This document shows, piece by piece, positions 8,087 through 52,893 of a stretch of DNA of 64,000 nt. The notes under the pieces were generated by a model. It was not told the origin of the DNA. It searched no databases and saw only the letters and a program-made list of their open reading frames with translations. The DNA comes from Carcharhinus longimanus (Eukaryota). Location: NCBI GenBank assembly GCA_030264375.1, contig JASCQW010000099.1, positions 46,361,651-46,425,650 of the forward strand. The letters run 5' to 3'. Made by a program: the position numbers and the translations under genes. Each line of letters begins with the position of its first letter. The first letter of the stretch is position 1.

Positions 8087-8174
8087 AGCACAGATGATCT
8101 ATTGGTTGCCTCTGCTGAATGTCCTAGCGATGATGAGGACATTGATGAATGTGAGCCAAGCTCAGGTGGGTTGG
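8087..8174 (+). CDS. NRXN1: Neurexin-1 penultimate coding exon (stalk / cysteine loop)
   Basis: Acceptor ttttttttaatcacag| is followed by [29 protein letters not shown], matching the recalled NRXN1 sequence [29 protein letters not shown]. Phase-1 donor G|GTGAGT at 8174/8175; alternative donor G|GTGGGT at 8165/8166. Confidence 0.95.
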
Positions 8175-8952
8175 GTGAGTCCATTTTTATTACTCTTTCT
8201 TGGTGTTTCTGTGATAGTGTGTTTGCATGTTATGTATGTTTGCTTGATAAATGGAAGGGGTTTCATTGTTCGGTCACTGAAAGTATTAAAGGATTTTTGT
8301 TGTAAGTCGCTAAAGGTCAAGTCGGCAGCTAAAGGGCTTACAGATTGATGTCCTAAAATGTGACAATGATGTGGCACCTCAGTCAATCTGCACCAGAGTT
8401 CTGTGGCATCACTTTCTTAGTCAATGAGTTGGAGGTGGAGCTCGACTTAGCATTGATTCAAACAATGTCTATTTACTTTGCAAATGAGGTTTGTTTAAGC
8501 AACACATTACAGCAAACAATCTACAGAGGCTATTTAAAGGGAGTTTCTGTGATAAAGCAAGCAAAAACTTATTACTGAAACTGCAACCATTTCTCAAAAT
8601 AAAAACAGTTAGCTCTCCAGTAAAATTGAGTGATTGAATGATAGCTAAATGTTACAATTGATTATTTCACTAGAAAATCGCCTTGAGTGGAGTACACTTG
8701 CATACGAATTATGCATGCAAAATCAATCCTAATCACTTACAGTGGTGCAGTCTGCAGGCGTGATTGACAGGTTATTACCAAATCATCTCCTTTCCAGCTG
8801 GGAATAGTGGCATCACAGCCAAATCTACATGTATTCATTCAAAAACGCAGCCATGTAACATTCAGGGATATAGACATGAATACGCTGTTATATACATGAA
8901 TATTGGCAGATTACATAACGATTCTTTCAAATATGCAAATTTTTGTATCTTT

Positions 8953-9262
8953 GGGGCGGCATGGGGGCACAGTGGTTAGCACTGCTACCTCACAGTACCA
9001 GGGACCCGGGTTCAATTCCAGCCTTGGGACATTGTGTGGAGTTTGCATATTCTCCCCGTGTCTGCGTGGGCTTCCTCCCACAGTCCAAAGATGCGCAGTT
9101 AGGTGGATTTGCCATGCTAAATTGACCTTAGTCTTGGGGGAATTAGAGGCTTAAATATGTGGGGTTACAGGTCTAGGGCCTGGGTGGGATTGTGATGGGT
9201 GCAGACTCGATGGGTCGGATGGTTTCATTCTATACTGTAGAAATTCAGTGATTCTATGATTC
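8953..9262 (+). mobile_element. HE1-type V-SINE
   Basis: tRNA-like head with A box GGCACAGTGGTTAGC and B box GGTTCAATTCC, V-domain GTGTGGAGTTTGCA...CTCCCACAGTCCAAAGATG, and tail GATTCTATGATTCT. Confidence 0.9.
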
Positions 9263-10454: not shown

Positions 10455-11690
10455 TAGAAGCTTATCTCTCTCAAGAGCTCATCTAATTTCCTTTTGAAAT
10501 CATTATTCGCCTCCACTTATGTCATCCTTGTGAACAGTGAGTTTCAGGCCATTACCACTTGGTTTCTTAAAATGTTCTTTCTCACAGCCACCCTGCATTC
10601 CTTGCCCAAATTTGTGAATGTATCCCCTAGATCTCGTAGCATCAGCTAATGGGAACAGCTTTTTTTTAGGTAACTGGTGGGATCTTCCAGTCCACTAGCC
10701 TATCCCATTGTCAGGGAATCTGCCATGGGGGGGGGGGTCACCTTCAGTGAGCCCAGAAGGCCACAAGAAGTAAACCACTTGCAAATCAACCCCCCTCCCC
10801 CCCCACCAACCCTCCACATCAAGTACAAAAGCAGGAAAGTTATGGTGAACCTTTTGAAAACTTTGGTTAAGCCACAAAAAAAAGCATTGTATTCTGTCCA
10901 TTGTATTCCCCCCACAACCCTCCACATCCAAATCTCATTTACTCCAAGAAGGGAAATCCCTAGTTTCTCTAATCTTCCCTCCTGGTTAATATCCCTCATC
11001 CCTGGAACCATTCTGGAAAATCTCCTCTGGATCCTCTCAGGAACTCTCGCACCCTGTCTAAAGTGTGGTCACAAGAATCATAGAACTGTGGAATCCTTAC
11101 AGAAGGAGGCCTTTCAGCCTATCGCATTTTGCACTGACTCTCCGACAGAGCATCTGACTGAGATCCCCCCCTCCACCCCATGCATACACTCCACTAACTC
11201 CTGCCCATCTTTGGACATTAAGTGGCAATTTAGTATGGCCAGTCCACCTAACCTGCACATCTTTGGATGGTAGGAGGAAAGAGGAACACCTGGAGGAAAC
11301 CCACGCAGACATGAGGAAAACATGTAATCTCCGTACAGGCAGTCAGAGGCCAGAACTCTAAGGCTGGAATCGAACCCTGGTCCCTGGTACCATGAGGCAG
11401 CAGTGCTAATCACTGTGCCACCGTGGACAGAATACAATGCTTTTTTTTGTGGCTTAACCAAAGTTTTCAAAAGGTTCACCATAACTTTCCTGCCTTTGTA
11501 CTGATACCTTTATTTACAAAGCTCAAATTCCCATCTGCTTTGCTAACTGCTGTCACATTATATCCTACCACCATCAACAATCTGCATATGGACCTCAAGG
11601 TCCTTCTGAGCCTGCACAATCTTTAGAATTGTGACATTAAGTCTACATTGTGTGTCCCCATTCCTTTTGCTAGAAAGTATCACCTTTCCC
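10455..11690 (-). mobile_element. Old CR1 LINE fragment disrupted by a SINE and a local inverted duplication
   Basis: Minus-strand translations VPGMRDINQEGRLEKLGI and KSRKVMVNLLKTLVKPQ correspond to CR1 RT C-terminal motifs. Confidence 0.7.
11075..11425 (-). mobile_element. HE1-type V-SINE
   Basis: Reverse complement of the head (GTGCTAATCACTGTGCCACCGTG, GAATCGAACCC), V-domain, and AGAATCATAGAA tail. Confidence 0.9.
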
Positions 11691-12099
11691 ACATCCTCCA
11701 CTCAAACCTATACAAAGCCCCTATGGCCCCCACATCTCCCCCCCCCCCCCCAAGCCTCCATGCCAAGTTATAGCATTTCCATGCCCATTCACCCAGGATG
11801 CGTTCTTACAGAATGAATGAACCCTACAGTAAAAATGACAAAAAGTTTAAAAAAGCCCTTCATAACTTTCTGTAAAAATCTGCTCTTACTACAGCCCATA
11901 AAAATGTCAATCAACTCAACTTTAAAGTATCAGTAGCAGAAAGTACAAGCCATTGATAAAACATCTAAGAAAAAAGGCTGTTTGGTTGAGTGCCTGGACA
12001 TCCATTAGTTTGGTGGAACTGGTGCGCATGAGAGAGAAAAGCATTGGTTAATTGACCGCCTTTTTTCTTAGATTTGTTTGTAAATGTTTTGCTCATTAG

Positions 12100-12422
12100 G
12101 ACAGCATGGTAGCACAGTGGTTTGCACTGCTGCTTCACAGGTCCAGGGACCTGGGGGTTCAATTCCTGGCTTGGATCACTGTCTGTATGGAGTTTGCACA
12201 TTCTCCTCATGTCTGCGTGTGTTTCCTCTGGGTGCTTTGGTTTCCTCCCACAGTCCAAAGATGTGCAGGTTAGGTTGATTGGCCATGTTAAAATTGCCCC
12301 TTAGTGTCCTGAGATGTGTGGATTAGCTGTTGGATATGGGTTAGGGCCTGGATGGGATTGTGGTCGGTGCAGACTCGATAGGTCAAATGACCTCCTTCTG
12401 CATTGTACGGTTTCTATGATTC
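12100..12422 (+). mobile_element. HE1-type V-SINE
   Basis: Same head, V-domain and TTCTATGATTCT tail as the 8953 copy. Confidence 0.9.
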
Positions 12423-13534
12423 TTCTAATTATATTAGTTCATTATTCAAAATCAATAGAGGGGTTCATGTTTTATCTTGTATTCAGGAGAAAGGACATTA
12501 TGGATTGAGATAAATGATATAAGTGTTTCCTTGCAAACAATGCCAAACGATAATACACAAAACCAGATTAGCTAGTCAACCTATCAAATTAAAGGATTAG
12601 AAATTTGGCTCTGTTCCATGACCTGGCATTATGGAAGCCAGAACCCCACCAAATGGTGTGAGTGATGCTCCGAGCTGCTACTGGCTTGGTCTGCGTGGTG
12701 CCTCATGCTGAAAGGAATGCTGGTGTGGGTGTGTGTTGTGTGGCGCTGGAAGCTTCCCAATTGACCAGACTGTGACATCAAACAGATACGCTCACTGATC
12801 TAAATGCAACTTAGACCATACAAGTCTACTCATCACACACTCACTTGTCACTCACCGACATGCATTAAGTTGCAAGACGGTCCCACTACATCTGGTGATA
12901 TTTAAATGTCAGGCATCCAACTTGCAGGTCAGATGATTTAGACAAACTTCCATTATTACAAAGCTTTGGAAGAGTAGTTTCTGTATTGAGTTGTTGAATT
13001 TGGCAGGGAGTGTTATTGTAGGAGTCAAGAGAATTGATGACCTATCCACATAAAAGGCCCATAGCAGGTATAGGGACTTCAGGTGCGGTACCTCAGGGTG
13101 TGCAGCATGACAGGGGGATGGAGCAGAGGCTCCCGATAGGGCAAACTCTGCATTGAGGCATGAGGAGAAGGAAAAAGATGAAAATGTACCAGAAAAGCTT
13201 CACTCTGGACACATTGCACATGAGTGCCTATTCAAACTTTGGTTTTCTTAGGATGGCAGCACTTCTCCCCAATTCCTCACCTTCCCATTCATGTGTTACT
13301 TTCACTTACAGACTTCTTTTGACAAAAATCCTGTAATAGAAGCCATCCACAAAAATGTTGCAATGAGGTCTTTATCAAATAATATATCCAATCATACAGC
13401 TAAAATTAACTATTTACTCTTGGCAATCCTCTTGGTGCTTATTTTACATTTGCCTTTTCTAATGTTCCTGCACAATGGCAGCAGTATGCCTCATCAAAGG
13501 CTGCTGACTTTCACTGGGAACAACTAGAAGTGAC

Positions 13535-17624: not shown

Positions 17625-18490
17625 TTTCTTTGCTTTGATTTAGTTTAATTGGATTTATGATTGCCATGTGTATTAATATACAATGAAAAGTATTGTTTCT
17701 TGCGCACTATGCAGACAGAGCATACCATACATAGAGAAGGAAAGGAGACAGTATAGAACGTAATGTCACAGTCATAGCTAGGGTGTTGAGAAAGATCAAC
17801 TTAATGTGAGGTAGGTCCTTTCAAAGTCTGATGGCAGCAAGGAAGAAGCTGTTTTTGAGTTGGTTGGTACATGTCCTCAGACTATTGTAACATTTTCTGG
17901 ACAGTGAAAGTGAAAGAGAGTATATCCAAGTGTCCTTAGTTATGCTGGCTGCTTTTCTGAGGCAACAAAGAGTGTAGATAGTGTCAATGGATAGAAGGCT
18001 GGTTTCAGTGATGAACTGGGCTTCATTCATGATCTTTTGTAATTTCTTGTGGTCTTGGACACAGCAGGAGCCATACCAAACTGTGATACAACCAGAAGGA
18101 ATGCTTTCTATTGTGTATCTGTAAAAGTTCTGAGAGTCATAGCAGACATGTCAAATTTCCTTACTCTTCTGAGAAAGTAGAGGCTTTGTGGGCTTCCTTA
18201 ACTATAGCGTCGGCTTGGAGGGACAAGACGAGTTGTTGGTGACCTGGACATGAAAAATTTGAAGCTCTCGCCCATTTCCACTTCATCCCTGTTGATTAGA
18301 CTGAGACATACCCTCCACTGGGCTTCCTGAAGTCAATGACTATCTTCTTTATTTTGTTGACGTTGAGGGAGAGATTATTTTTGCCTCACCAGTTCACCAG
18401 ATTCTCTATCTCACTCCTATACTCTGTCTCGTCACTGTTTGAGATCTGACCCACTACGGCGGTGTCATCAACAAACTCGAAAATCAAGTT
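17625..18490 (-). mobile_element. Rex1/Babar-clade LINE 3' fragment (RT core to tail)
   Basis: Minus strand gives FVDDTAVVGQISNSDETEYR (RT catalytic motif) near 18470 and TNQLKNSFFLAAIRL, typical of the Rex1 C-terminus. The tail is (AAATC)n-like. Confidence 0.8.
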
Positions 18491-21206: not shown

Positions 21207-21510
21207 ATAGAATCATAGAAGCCCTACAGTGCAGAACGATGCCATTGGGCCTATCAAGCCTTCACTAACAACAATCACACCCAGACCCTATCCCTGAAAC
21301 CTCACATATTTATCCTGCTAATCTCCCTGACACAAAAGGACAATTTAGCTTGGCCAGTCAACCTAACCGGCACATCTTTGGAGTGGGGAAGGAAACCGGA
21401 GCACCCAGAGGAAACCCATATAGGCACAGGAAGAATGTGCCTCACCAAGGCCGGAATTGAACTTGGGTCCTTGGCGCTGTGAACCAGCAGTGCTAGCCAC
21501 TGTGCCACCC
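21207..21510 (-). mobile_element. HE1-type V-SINE
   Basis: ATAGAATCATAGAA tail, V-domain, and CAGTGCTAGCCACTGTGCCACC head in reverse. Confidence 0.9.
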
Positions 21511-33058: not shown

Positions 33059-35324
33059 CTATTCTCTCTCCATGGATGCTGTCAGACCTGCTGAGATTTT
33101 CCAGCATTCTCTGTTTTTGATCTGACAATGTACTGCCCATGCCATAAATCTCACGTTGGGCAGGCTGTTTTGCTGAAATAGTTTTTCAAAGGGCAAAAAG
33201 GAATAAGCACCAAAAAAAACCCTTTTTCTGCCCCCCTCTCTGAACTGCCCGGCCCCAGACACAGGACTTGCCTTGCTCTGTGGCCAAGCTTTCTTGTCCC
33301 TAGTTGCAGTCTCAGCAGTTCCCGCTAATACACTCTTACTGTCACTGGGACCGCTGGAGCTGCCAGCCAATTGAATTAGCCAGCTGCTCCCGAGGGCAGG
33401 GTTTTCTCCCAGTGGTGCAGGTTAACTTCATGCCGAATTTGCTTCTGGGGGTGAGGGTTGCGCGATCCATCCGTTCCCCCCTTCGTAATTTGTTACCCCA
33501 TATAGTTTTAATCAAACTAATGAAATTCAGTGACTGAAACACATACAGAAATAGAAAGGAGCTGGAGGAATCCTATTCCCTAACCTAGTTAAAATAAAAG
33601 TAAATTTGGGTCATGTACTTGACTGAGCAGATTTCAATTTAGCTCGGAATTACAAGATTAAACATACTTTTTCATCACAATAGAGCCAGTTCATGATTCT
33701 TGCAATAAAGGTTAATTAGCTATTTTGAACAAAAGTGGGTACTTCTATTTCCATTATGACTGCTGGCCTTTAATACGATGGTGGTGTTAAAGCTGAAAGG
33801 TTATGCTTCTTAACAAATTAATCCGTGAAACCATTCTGTGTCTAGTTGGTGTCTTACTTAAGTTCTCTGCTTCTCTCTAACCATTTTGTTAGTCCTGATG
33901 TACCTTATTAGTGAAAGTACTTATATGATTTGTGTTTTATCCCCTTTTGTTCTTTCCTTAATTCTGAAGTTTCCTATCTGCCATCAAAATGATATGGAAA
34001 GCTAAAATTTGATGGGCTTGACTGAACATCTAAACAGGTTTCAAGTACATGACAAATGGTTATTATTCTGAAGAGGTGTGGGAGCGTTAATTATCATTGA
34101 AATTGAGTTTCTCTGCTTAAGTAATTGAATGTGGCAAATGGTGAGTGCAGACTTTGCCATTGCTCTGTTAATGTGTGTGCAAGGTTCAAAGGTGACCTGG
34201 CTTACAAGTGATGGGCACACAGAGGAATACAAAGCAATATCTTTAAACTGACAAGAAATTTACTGTCGTGCCATTGAGGTTTTAGAAAATCTGTTGGTAG
34301 CTGTAATGGTATAATTATGATACAGGTACTTTGCATAATTACTTTTCTCATTTTCTAAGGTAAGATTGTGTATACCATGTCAAGAACTATTTCACAATGG
34401 TTCAGCTTTTATGTCTGCTTGCTGTTTCCTCGAGTTGTGTTCATGCACCTTTTTTAGGTGAGGAGTCAAGTTCAGTGTGACACTAACTAGCAATTCTTTT
34501 GAGCAAGTATTATATAGATTTGACCTGAGAATTATCCACTGTGCTGGGGAAAGTCATTGTTATGGAATGTATTTCGGTGGAAAACCTTAAGAAGGAGTGA
34601 CATTTAATAAACAATTTATCTCAGAGCTTTACTGATAAGGATACATCAGTCGATGAAGATAACTTTCAGAGCACCCCACGTTTACCGTGTCTCTGAGTTT
34701 AACATTCTGCTGTGTGGTTCCTGGCTGTGGCTTGATCTTTTCACATAGTATTTAATTTTAAGTTTACAGGAGATTCACTAGACCACCGCTTACTCTCTCT
34801 GTTAAAAGATGTGCAAACCCATTTCCTTGAAATGGGAAGGATGTGATAATAATATAAAAATGGGTGTACCTGGATAGCATGAAAAATTGTTATTTTGTAA
34901 TGTGTTGACAGGTATGCTAACTGATCTGAAAGATTTAACAGTTTTAATATGCTTTATAGTATTATGTTGAAGCTGAAATACTGTAAGAAGCAAATATGAT
35001 TGTGTTTCTAGATCATTCTTTTACAACTTTCTTTCATTTTTCCTTCATGCCAAATCATGGGGGCAATTTGTTGACTGACATGTATGGTGAGCATTCTTTT
35101 TTGATACTTTCAGGCTAAATGTTAAAGTGTTAATGTTTGCATTCAACCAATAAACCAATTGCAGTTGTCATCCATTTCATAAATCTCACTATGTGCTGTG
35201 AAGTTGACGTGTGTTAATGTTTCTGTATTTTAACATGTATGCATTTTGGCTCTTTCTTTTAAATAAACAGCAGTTCTACAGTGCTGTCCATTTCTAATAC
35301 ACCTTATACTTTGTTTGCTCCTAG

Positions 35325-35927
35325 GAGGTCATTTTAATGATCACAGAAGTCCCATAAGAAACCCATTCCTCTACTTCATCATGTTCCTTTGCTTTTCTTC
35401 ATCATGTGCCATTGTTGATTTATTGTTGTCGATAAAAAGGAAACTGTCTTTTTCTTTGAGGTTTGCATTACTGATTGTGACAACACCAGTTGAGTTAATG
35501 GGGTGGTGTTATTCTTAAGGCAGTGTTCTTTCATGGTAGTTGGTGAAGGTAAAAGGGGAGTAGTTAATTCCAAACTGCCACCTAGTGATAATGTTCTTAC
35601 ATGACTTCATCCAGTCAACAGATAACACTATAACTGTAGTGTGCATATTGTTATTTGAAGATTACTTTGTAGATATCTGGGTGGGATACAAAGGAAGTCA
35701 GAACGAACAAAGTATTTGTAAGCACTGATCAAACACTTACTTTAACTCTTGTTAAGATTTGCAACTGCTTTCTCTTTTCCAAATTGCAGGTCAGAAAAAT
35801 ATTGTTTAACAGTGGCTTGAAACCCCTTCCAGATTCTGTATTGTATCCCTTTGCCCATCTTATCAAATCATGCTGACATATAAAAGCCCAGTAATAACCT
35901 CCTCCATGTTTCATGATGTACCCACAG
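35325..35927 (+). pseudogene. Vestigial, frameshifted homolog of the long splice-site-5 exon extension of NRXN2/NRXN3
   Basis: Collinear peptide remnants in different frames: [55 protein letters not shown]. Recalled NRXN3 counterparts are GGELVIPLLVEDP, DSNLPPTDD, TDKSLSTSIFEGGY..W, LKPQPDIVLLP, KSPLITSPMFRNVPT. Length is 603 nt (201 codons). Confidence 0.75.
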
Positions 35928-36232
35928 CAAACCCCACTGGAGCAGATGGCAGAGGCTTCCCAGGAACAGCGGAAGTGATTCGGGAATCGAGCAGCACCAC
36001 AGGGATGGTGGTTGGGATTGTGGCAGCAGCCGCTCTTTGCATTCTCATCCTCCTCTATGCTATGTACAAGTACAGGAATAGGGACGAAGGCTCCTACCAT
36101 GTGGATGAGAGCAGAAACTACATCAGTAACTCGGCTCAGTCCAATGGGGCTGTGGTGAAAGAGAAGCAGGTGAACAATGCCAAAAATTCCAGCAAAAACA
36201 AGAAGAATAAGGATAAAGAGTACTACGTCTGA
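35928..36232 (+). CDS. NRXN1: Neurexin-1 terminal coding exon (juxtamembrane stalk, transmembrane helix, cytoplasmic tail with PDZ-binding EYYV)
   Basis: Phase-1 acceptor cccacag|CA restores ...SSGGL-ANPT.... The protein reads [66 protein letters not shown]...[18 protein letters not shown] and the upstream SSGGL favour NRXN1 over NRXN2 (YQVDQS) and NRXN3 (YQVDET). Confidence 0.96.
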
Positions 36233-39200
36233 TTATACACTCTTGAAGAAGGAAGTCTGTAAAAAGAAAAGGAAAACAAAAAAAAACTTCATTTTATCAA
36301 AGACATGATAAAACTGAGATGTACTTTTTGCAAAGCACACGGGATAAAGACAGTACACATAATCGGGAAGGAAAGACGACAGTTTGTAAAGTAAGCATTA
36401 ACATTTCAAGCTGGTTGAAGTCTCCTACTTGTTCACAGTGTTTTNNNNNNNNNNCTTCTCGTTGTCTGAACTTTACTGTGGAGACAACAGCATGAAGCAT
36501 TCATAAAGAAGAGTATTACGACAGTGCACAGAGAATCTACCTGTTACCCATGAGTTTTCAGCCAAAGTGCTAAACAATTGTGCAACATGACAGAAGTCTC
36601 ATTACTCCAAGAAACTTAAATAGACAATAGTTAGCAGACCCTCGACGGTAAAGGGTTCATCATCTTTACATCCATGGGCGACCTGTGTTTAAGTGCTGGC
36701 TACAACATAAGACTAATGTTAAACTAGTATAAAGTGGAATAATCCCTTTCTGGTTGTAAGAAGTAAGGAAAGCCTTAATTTCATTCACAGGAAATGTAAG
36801 GCATGGATATATACAGATAAAAGAGAGCATAGATACAATCATTTGAAAATTTTCATGCACGCTAATATGTTATTACATACATTTATACAAACACGTATAT
36901 GTGCTTTCTGGACTGTGATGAGTGATGTTTTATAGCCTGTTGTATAGACAATGCAAATATCTCTGCTATCCAGACATTTTTTGGTAAACGTAATGTTATA
37001 GCTGTAGCTAGGTATAGACAGGTTTGAAGTTGTTGATGACGTTTGCAATATTACAATGTTTTTGCAGCCGTCATTAATTGTCTCAAACTTCTTTTTTAAT
37101 TTCCATCGTAATGAATGTCTACTATACATGTATGAGGGATACATATGAATGTACATATGATTTAGCTGCATTTTTTGTAATTGACTCAGACAGTAATCTC
37201 TTATGTTCTTATGAGGTTTTGTTGTGCAGGAAACAAAGTGAGTTTAACACTGAAATGGTGGCTGATGCTATGAAATCTTTGTAAGGTAAACCAGTGGAAA
37301 TTGGTTTCAATTGTTTCACCTTGTTTTTTTTTATCTTTACTGCATCCAGTGGGGAAAATGAAAAATGCTAAAAGAAATATCTGATCTTTCAATTATTTGC
37401 AAGCCAGATATTGATGTTGCTTAATGTCATGTACATGTTACATGGAAACCTTCCTAAGTATCTGTAGAGTCATTGCAGAAAATAATTGCTTATTTGTTCC
37501 TATTTCATATTGTTATGTTCCATCATTTTTTATTTAAAAATGTCCCTTATCCCATTTGAAAGTTGAGAGCTTTAACATTAAAGCATTGGAGGTCCTTCAT
37601 TTTCTAGCTTTGACTAAACAGTCCTATATGTGGATTATTAACGTGTATAGATCTTAAGAACTCATTATTTAGCTTCTATATTATTTTTAGATGATTTCAC
37701 AGCAATAAACCCGGTTGTAATGTACTTCAAATCAAATACAAAGAGAATATGTTAGATTCTATGGGTGTACTTCAAGGGAAACCAGCTGAATTTCTAGAAG
37801 ACCTCCTGGGAGGAAAATAGATGTTCACACATTCAAACAGGAAGAAGGAATTTAAAATTAGCTTTAAACAGCGGGGGCCACAACATAACAGGAATTGTGT
37901 ATTTTGTGTCAGCAGTCACTTAGAATTGACTATAGTCTCCTTGCCAACTGCTACAGCCACCTCGATGACATCTAAAACAATCATTACATTCGTCATTTTA
38001 TGCTCTCCACTAGAATAAATGTCTAAACAAAACTCATTTTTGATCACTTTGCTTTTACCTTGGAGAGAGAAATGTGTTCTCATTATAGTCAGTTTCTGAG
38101 GAGCAGATGGATCCTTAATCACAATAATGTCACATGCACCTTGACAGTGATATGTTGTGATGTGATTTATGCAATTATATTGAGCATTTATAAACAGTAA
38201 TGCATTATCTAAAAATGTTCATGAAGACTGCACCCCTTTAAATTTTAATATGAATGCTAACATTTGATTGCTGACCCATTTATTGTGTAGAATGATGATG
38301 TTTCTACAATTAAAGTCAGTCTTCCTTTGTCTCCAGTAACATGAAAAATGTCAACCATATTCAAGCTTCCCACACAAACATGTTCACATTTGTGAAATTA
38401 GGAAGATTGGAAAAAGTAATTCAAAACATTTTGTGCTTTCTTAATTGTACCAGAAGGAGACTTGAAAATCCCACATGATCAAGTTTACAAATAACCTTTT
38501 GCAGTGAGATCAAAGTCTGTTTTCTCCCCTCAATTTGCATAATCTGCTGTGTATTCCTTATTATTAGGAAAGCAGATTCAGAAGTTGTTGAGAAACTCCT
38601 CCATACTTAAGATTAATTGTTAGGTCTCGTGGCATTTTGGATTCATTTTGGAACCATAATTTGTGCAGAGTGGTATTCTTTGGCAGTTGCATTGTTTTGG
38701 TGATGCAAAGGTATATAAAAGAGGCCTAAGGCCTGGTGATGGATACAGACAACAGATGAAAATGGGAAGAAAAATACTTGTTTACTTCAGTTAATCCCAT
38801 TACTAAACACGCCCATACAATCAGATACATTAAAAGTGGCTGTAGGAACTTTAGAAAGCACTAGACAACAGTAGAATATATCGTAAAGTAATTAGAACTT
38901 GACTAACTAGACAGTTTTAAGCTATTCATGTTGCCAAGGTGGTTGTATCCATGCAGTCAACAATTTGGTTTAATGGCTGCACTGAAGCAACTTTTTCTTA
39001 TGTCTTAAACTACCTACAGCCCCTAGCATGGCAGTTTCCAAATCTCATTTAGGTTGATACTGTTTGGTACTGTAATGTGTTGTGTTTTGGCAAACTCTTG
39101 TTTTAAAACTGTATGAAATTTTACTTATGAATGATGCATTTCACACAAGATAAAACGAGCAAAACCATTCTGGAGCCCCATCTTCGAGTGCTTTGTGTGA

Positions 39201-41408: not shown

Positions 41409-41660
41409 TGGGTGGCACGGTGGCTAGCACTGCTGTCTCACAGTGCCAGGGACCCGGGTTTGATTCTCAGCTCGGGTCACTATCTGTGCGTAGTCTGTCT
41501 GTTGTCCCTATGTCTGTGTGGGTTTCCTCCCACACTCCGAAAATGCTAATTAGGCGCATTGGCCAGTTAAATTCTCCCTCAGTATACGTGAACGGGCGCC
41601 GGAATGTGGCGGCTAGGGGATTTTCACTGTAGCTTCATTGCAGTGTTAATGTAAGCCTTA
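41409..41660 (+). mobile_element. V-SINE variant with an HE1-like head and a different 3' half
   Basis: GGCACGGTGGCTAGCACTGCTGTCTCACAGTGCCAGGGACCCGGGTTTGATTC head. The 3' part (GGCGCCGGAATGTGGCGGCTAGGGG...GTTAATGTAAGCCTTAC) differs from the other copies. Confidence 0.75.
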
Positions 41661-52566: not shown

Positions 52567-52893
52567 AATCATAGGATCTCTATATTGCAAAAGCAGGCCA
52601 TTTGGTCCATTGAATCTGCACCAACCCTCCAACAGAGCATCCCACCCAGACCCTAACCCCGTAGCTCCATGTATTTACCCTACTAATCCTACACATCCTG
52701 GTACACTAAGGGATAATTTAGCATGGCTCGCTAGTCCACCTAACCTACATGTCTTTGGACTGTGGGGGGAAACCAGAGCACCCGGAAGAAACCCATGCAG
52801 ACACAGGAAGAATGTGCAAACTTCACACACCCAAGACTAGAATTGAACTTAGGTCCTTGACGCTCTGAGTACTAACCACTGTGCCACCATGCT
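52567..52893 (-). mobile_element. HE1-type V-SINE
   Basis: CCACCTAACCTACATGTCTTTGGACTGTGGG...CTAACCACTGTGCCACCATGCTGC. Confidence 0.88.

Follow-up and report, generated by a model that had tools for sequence, protein, structure and literature searches.

Here, we describe a decayed paralogue of NRXN3 exons 25a and 25b, the long splice-site-5 (SS5) insert, in the last intron of NRXN1 of the shark Carcharhinus longimanus. The segment occupies 603 nt (35325-35927, forward strand) directly before the terminal coding exon, within the 64,000-nt stretch of DNA that was analysed (the window; GenBank assembly GCA_030264375.1, contig JASCQW010000099.1, positions 46,361,651 to 46,425,650). It is very probably a fossil, by descent, of a long SS5 insert of NRXN1 itself, and we take it to be about 500 million years old. 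The reading that we favour, with good though not full confidence, is that of a frameshifted, non-coding 25a+25b copy that was inherited and has remained recognisable through slow evolution together with selection on its splice signals.

The window contains the two last coding exons of a neurexin, both on the forward strand. The penultimate exon (cys-loop; 8087-8174) matches shark NRXN1 at 94-97% (tblastn) and ends at either of two donors, after 8165 or 9 nt further on after 8174, which give the 3-residue SS5 variation and are both found in RNA-like contigs. The terminal exon (35928-36232; the 25c equivalent), placed by contig junctions and by 96-98% identity to shark and ray proteins named neurexin 1a, encodes the end of the stalk, the transmembrane helix and the cytoplasmic tail, with the stop at 36230-36232. 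A second in-frame acceptor lies 18 nt inside it, at 35946; this acceptor is used in one RNA-like contig set (X15), is annotated in skates and a stingray, and takes out ANPTG-like residues, and the +18 form of the exon occurs in 10 proteins, including ray and skate. The 3' UTR (36233-38500) reaches at least to 38500, as in both X15 and X17 the junction and that position are linked within a single contig, and it shows about 94-95% identity in organisms G, H and I. Interspersed SINE/LINE-like repeats common to the window and the NRXN3 intron (68-79% identical) have copies at 8952-9251, 11150-11479, 12098-12426, 17648-18103, 21208-21509, 41411-41656 and 52567-52891.

A tree was built from the region between LNS6 and the C-terminus with inserts removed (25 rows, 355 columns; five exons from this genome and 23 named proteins; one NRXN2 row only). 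The window gene falls inside chondrichthyan NRXN1 (100/99), with all NRXN1 at 96/92, which upholds the original prediction that the gene is NRXN1. A second locus of this genome, C112, falls in NRXN3. A third neurexin locus (C187:5100710-5100886) comprises one exon, probably of NRXN2, in a scaffold region of 55% GC and 65% N; its remaining neurexin exons were likely lost in assembly gaps.

The NRXN3 locus of the same genome carries an intact 621-nt insert between CCTAG|GAGG and CCCACAG|C, and global DNA alignment shows the 603 nt to be collinear with it over the full length. When the last 50 nt are excluded, the alignment scores 131 versus -15 +/- 12 for 500 dinucleotide shuffles (maximum 26.5; z 11.7) and versus a maximum of 47.5 for 1098 other window segments (z 7.8). 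Frameshift-aware alignment to a profile of 11 intact inserts gives a score of 63 versus -40 +/- 13 (maximum -8; z ~8; 60 shuffles with the last 45 nt kept), with path identity highest to NRXN3 (35%), followed by lamprey (30%) and lungfish NRXN2 (28%), whereas plain tblastn with intact inserts recovers only the 3' end (the last ~15 codons) and a 12-residue block. Among the 46 aligned columns that are invariant across NRXN3, NRXN2 and lamprey, 24 are still kept in the fossil. The fossil also aligns with a teleost nrxn3b insert (z 11.3), and weakly with two teleost nrxn2 inserts (z 2.3 and 1.1). DNA identity to the NRXN3 insert is 62% (347/557 columns), which is not itself evidence because unrelated gapped alignments reach about 60% at the same settings; as shuffled or saturated sequences also give 49-60%, percent identity was dropped as an argument for homology. 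The fossil is single-copy in the genome, its sole other match being the NRXN3 element.

The motifs from which an NRXN2/NRXN3-type insert remnant had been predicted are all present in their frames: CTAAT (35294), CCTAG|GAGGT (35325), MITEVP (35337), NSKLPPSDN (35566-35592), TDNTIT..LFEDY..W (35618-35680), an 11-residue block from 35817, and a 15-residue block (35882-35926) in frame with ANPT. The alignments bear out that remnant as homologous over its whole length to the long SS5 insert of NRXN3. A literature search returned no prior description of an NRXN1 fossil; older gene-structure comparisons, which might mention it, lie beyond the reach of that search.

Divided at the exon starts defined for 25a, 25b and 25c by mouse Nrxn3 in Table S4 of PMC9275415, the fossil comprises a 25a part (35325-35621; 297 nt, versus 300 in shark NRXN3 and 303 in mouse) with 7 frameshifts and 1 stop, and a 25b part (35622-35927; 306 nt, versus 321 in shark NRXN3) with 2 frameshifts, whose 3' end doubles as the working acceptor's tract. 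The frameshifts lie at approximately 35330, 35349, 35366, 35395, 35418, 35456, 35599, 35672 and 35853 and the one stop on the homologous path at 35491, so the open frame from the cys-loop to the transmembrane exon is broken. Use of the 25a acceptor would lead to a stop at 35516-35518 after 64 residues, and use of the 25b acceptor to one at 35726-35728 after 35 residues. A GPI-like tail in the 64-residue frame was considered and rejected, as hydrophobicity peaks inside the peptide (KD 2.0 at residue 16) and not in its tail (KD 1.0); T-rich DNA accounts for this peak. A short direct duplication, CTTCATCATGT twice, is found at 35375-35409.

The frameshifts are real. DNA-like contig sets from four organisms (A-D), differing from the window by 0.1-2%, span the fossil, apart from a gap in X7 between 35839 and 35854, and have the frame breaks in common, the only indel inside it being one base at 35854 in one depth-2 contig; X1 is possibly the source sample, and the other three DNA studies are independent of X1. 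The shared lesions do not date the loss, because all four organisms are close relatives. Organism H has a more ancestral, in-frame reading, YQINTDDRKL before KSP, versus YQIMLTY in the window and YEVDSTKL in NRXN3. The single stop on the homologous path compares with 3.7-5.1 in neutral simulations (<=1 in 20/240), a deficit that is no more than a hint of a coding role during some of the insert's history. Together, the two observations hint at a loss of coding after the duplication and at decay that is ongoing.

Elsewhere, lamprey has the intact insert in 11 long forms alongside 4 short ones, and it is also intact in lungfish NRXN2, in two teleost nrxn2 contigs, and in NRXN3 from rays to mammals. 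Its intact state in lamprey as well as in NRXN2 and NRXN3 dates it to before the three genes separated, and to that extent the predicted origin before the vertebrate neurexin duplications stands; an origin before both genome duplications is likely rather than firm, because the place of lamprey neurexin in the tree is weak (83/79) and the comparison is vertebrate-only. The long insert occurs in 0/172 jawed-vertebrate NRXN1-type proteins, including those of 14 named cartilaginous fish species. No intact long NRXN1 was found among the 120 best of 654 matches to the lamprey insert, which are the query itself and 119 proteins named neurexin 3, nor among 323 proteins examined, the main shark cluster being represented by 15 of its 294 members; intact NRXN1 forms may still exist among unnamed proteins. 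The insert is likely ancestral and NRXN1 the gene that lost it; with the long ligand-binding stalk ancestral, the short stalk of NRXN1 is derived.

A remnant in birds is suggested by a finch NRXN1 gene model (P0027; A0A8C3MLC1), in which 81 residues before ANPT align collinearly to NRXN3 25b. The score is reached by 0/2000 shuffles against macaw and against sturgeon, and without the last 15 residues by 3 and 0 of 2000, respectively; the match fails against carp NRXN3 (186 and 1287 of 2000 shuffles). In one teleost nrxn1 paralogue, seen in two contigs (L047, L053), the last intron is only ~670 nt long and has no insert trace, and the exon start is changed. Tilapia NRXN1 models P0025, P0026 and P0076 show no consistent match to the insert.

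Calling the segment a decaying copy, as in the original prediction, agrees with its frameshifts but gives only part of the picture, since preservation is better at the splice signals and at an upstream element than elsewhere. Comparison with NRXN3 identifies a branch-point-like CTAAT at -31 (CTAAC at -30 in NRXN3), a pyrimidine tract and the AG of a 25a-like acceptor (35294-35324, forward strand). This acceptor has 13/17 pyrimidines, versus 10/17 at 35928, no other AG in -40..-4, and the core CCTAG|GAGG of NRXN3. The internal 25b acceptor also survives, at 35622 (AACAG|ATAA), and both unused acceptors match NRXN3 in 9/9 letters, while fully kept nine-letter windows inside the insert number only 3/598. 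Exact runs shared with NRXN3 are longest at the working acceptor (14 nt), followed by the 25a acceptor (11), a site elsewhere (10) and the 25b acceptor (9). The neutral probability of keeping both unused cores is 1e-3 to 1e-4 at d 0.4-0.6, for a core width picked after the alignment had been viewed; for the two AGs alone it is 0.1-0.2.

The upstream element (35017-35081, forward strand) is non-coding and paralogous to the 3' end of NRXN3 exon 24 (52/58 letters, z 10.6; genome-wide E 4.4e-6), with about 90% identity to the last 60 nt of that exon. In shark NRXN3, exon 24 (C112, about 7164950-7165670, reverse strand; L003-L004) encodes a 35-residue, stop-ending peptide resembling the mouse GPI-anchor cassette and extends 710 nt to a GTAAGT donor, compared to ~706 nt in mouse. 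From these exon lengths, we infer that the donor-like AT|GTATGG at which the element ends (GT at 35082; AT|GTAAGT in NRXN3) corresponds to the exon-24 donor. So clear an exon 24 in a shark makes it likely that the GPI-type isoform dates to the jawed-vertebrate ancestor. The flanks of the element do not align with NRXN3 (z 0.3, -0.9, -0.2), nor do the rest of exon 24 and the intron up to 25a align with the window; the exon-24 coding start (small-residue site, hydrophobic tail) has no significant match in 8200-35325, and a 9-letter match to the exon start at 34621 was rejected (z 0.9). This element, the 25b acceptor at 35622 and the 9/9 conservation of the unused acceptors go beyond the original prediction.

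In post hoc counts, UWAA is about 3-fold enriched from the donor-like site to 25a in both paralogues (35082-35324 in the window; 11 vs 3.9 and 10 vs 3.5) and YCAY about 2-fold in 25a (35325-35621 in the window; 12 vs 6.3 and 8 vs 3.7). We take these motifs to be possible STAR- and NOVA-family sites, respectively.

Splicing was followed in four RNA-like contig sets (X15, X17, X19, X20), assigned to RNA by guess, whose contigs drop rare forms. Three of the four splice the fossil out, with the upstream exon joined to 35928 in X17 and X20 (from the long and the short donor) and to 35946 in X15. No contig in the four runs starts at 35325 or 35622 with a loose end of the upstream exon. In X19, one contig crosses 35928 unbroken, covering 89 nt of 25b before the last exon, and a second reaches 35079 with 2 letters left over, beside the proposed exon-24-like donor; X19 may be unspliced RNA or DNA, and low depth could also give both contigs. 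Among 16 candidate annotated truncated NRXN1 isoforms, none carries the 25a-frame peptide end at E <= 10, which is weak evidence. Present-day use of a minor splice path through the fossil signals is a tentative proposal, possible but less likely than not.

By simulation, the fossil is about 0.65-0.75 substitutions per site from the NRXN3 insert, and its GC content is 37% versus 55%. Fourfold sites of the working exons, compared between NRXN1 and NRXN3, are near saturation (41/125 identical, d ~1.7). The divergence of the fossil's body is therefore compatible with neutral decay that has lasted for the greater part of the period since duplication. Among close relatives, the fossil changed at 8/515 and 9/603 sites versus 19 and 18 of 825 upstream (p 0.43 each), a rate so similar to that of the upstream intron that there is no clear extra constraint, and it changed faster than exon and UTR (9/603 vs 1/493, p 0.027).

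These rates are what would be expected if the fossil were wholly neutral, with nothing working in 35017-35900 and the acceptors surviving by chance and the slow shark rate. The evenness of identity along the fossil (22-36/50 per window of 50, not clearly uneven), the lack of junctions at 35325 or 35622 in the RNA-like contigs, and an RNA fold of the region nowhere beyond shuffles (z -1.2, 0.7) agree with such an account, but the upstream element retains 52/58 letters between unalignable flanks (p 6e-7 at 60% retention), both unused cores are intact with the branch point at the same distance, and a remnant appears in a bird. We consider a wholly neutral fossil unlikely, and selection on the splice signals somewhat probable.

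A transfer from NRXN3 to NRXN1 within sharks, by gene conversion or ectopic transfer and followed by decay, is improbable. It would explain why the fossil is much closer to NRXN3 than to teleost NRXN2 DNA and shares with NRXN3 a 25b acceptor absent from the two teleost nrxn2 inserts. Where shark and bony NRXN3 differ (28 sites), the fossil agrees with shark at 6 and with bony at 4, yet 4/6 of the shark-matching states are shared by NRXN2 or lamprey, and 11 sites of the fossil carry a state that NRXN2 or lamprey has but that no NRXN3 shows. Position and spacing are also as expected of ohnologues, the finch gene model suggests a remnant in birds, and the working exon alongside is plainly NRXN1. 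An ordinary intact insert, in an NRXN2 or NRXN3 gene or with indels that are assembly errors, can be set aside despite lengths that are multiples of 3 (603, 297 and 306) and the low stop count (1 vs 3.7-5.1 in neutral simulations), as the tree places the gene in NRXN1, other loci (C112 and C187) hold NRXN3 and a third neurexin, and contigs of four organisms share the frame breaks.

We return to the inherited, non-coding copy with selected splice signals. The last exon of the ancestral vertebrate neurexin would have had tandem acceptors 25a, 25b and 25c. After the genome duplications, the long stalk would have persisted in NRXN2 and NRXN3 but not in NRXN1, whose copy drifted to a GC content of 37% and a distance of about 0.65-0.75 substitutions per site while slow shark evolution and selection on the splice signals kept it recognisable. 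Selection would still act on the branch point, on the acceptor cores of 25a and 25b and on the exon-24-like donor element, most likely because they serve a minor splice path. Given nine frameshifts and a stop alongside kept signals, the protein is dead and the splice scaffold looks selected. Such a path would produce NRXN1 mRNAs that stop before the transmembrane helix, or that carry the fossil as untranslated sequence, on the model of mouse Nrxn3 exon 24-25a mRNAs, the insert being freed from coding with donor and acceptor kept.

The finding gives a direction to neurexin SS5 evolution, with NRXN1 as the gene that lost the long stalk, and is a clear instance of ohnologues diverging by loss of a splice form that is still legible in a slow genome. 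It also marks a 900-nt stretch of the last NRXN1 intron as a candidate regulatory region. More speculatively, and in our view with low probability, jawed-vertebrate NRXN1 (sharks, birds, perhaps mammals) may have kept the SS5 splice module, lost only its peptide, and still make truncated, transmembrane-less or silenced transcripts. Were this true, the last intron of NRXN1, a major risk gene for autism and schizophrenia, would conceal a dosage switch, and the view of stop-containing SS5 forms as unique to NRXN3 would be overturned.

Compared to the mouse Nrxn3 AS5 tandem acceptors 25a/25b/25c, as given in passages of PMC9275415, the fossil has the same position, similar spacing (297+306 vs 303+321 nt), the same acceptor cores and homologous peptide blocks; it differs in that its frame is broken and that RNA-like contigs gave no junction at 35325 or 35622. 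According to the same paper, mouse exon-24 mRNAs mostly splice to 25a, and 25a is then untranslated and represses translation; passages of PMC10942602 report that mouse 25b binds C1ql2. Nrxn3 exon 24, described in passages of PMC9812575 as a stop-containing GPI-anchor cassette unique to Nrxn3, has its pre-donor element 90% kept in NRXN1, 243 nt upstream of 25a versus 470 in shark NRXN3, but its coding start and body are without match in the NRXN1 window. The long SS5 form of NRXN2 (lungfish P0106, teleost L050 and L052) has a homologous insert before the same terminal exon with the frame open, and is without the FEGGY..W block; teleost NRXN2 also is without the 25b AG common to the fossil and NRXN3. 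The lamprey neurexin-1-like long form (P0085) likewise has a homologous insert in open frame, and lamprey also makes the short form. The pseudoexons and duplicated conserved elements of ohnologues covered in passages of PMC1794582, which do not name this case, are alike in the loss of a splice form and in a shared intronic element, but here a whole 600-nt alternative segment is still readable with its splice signals.
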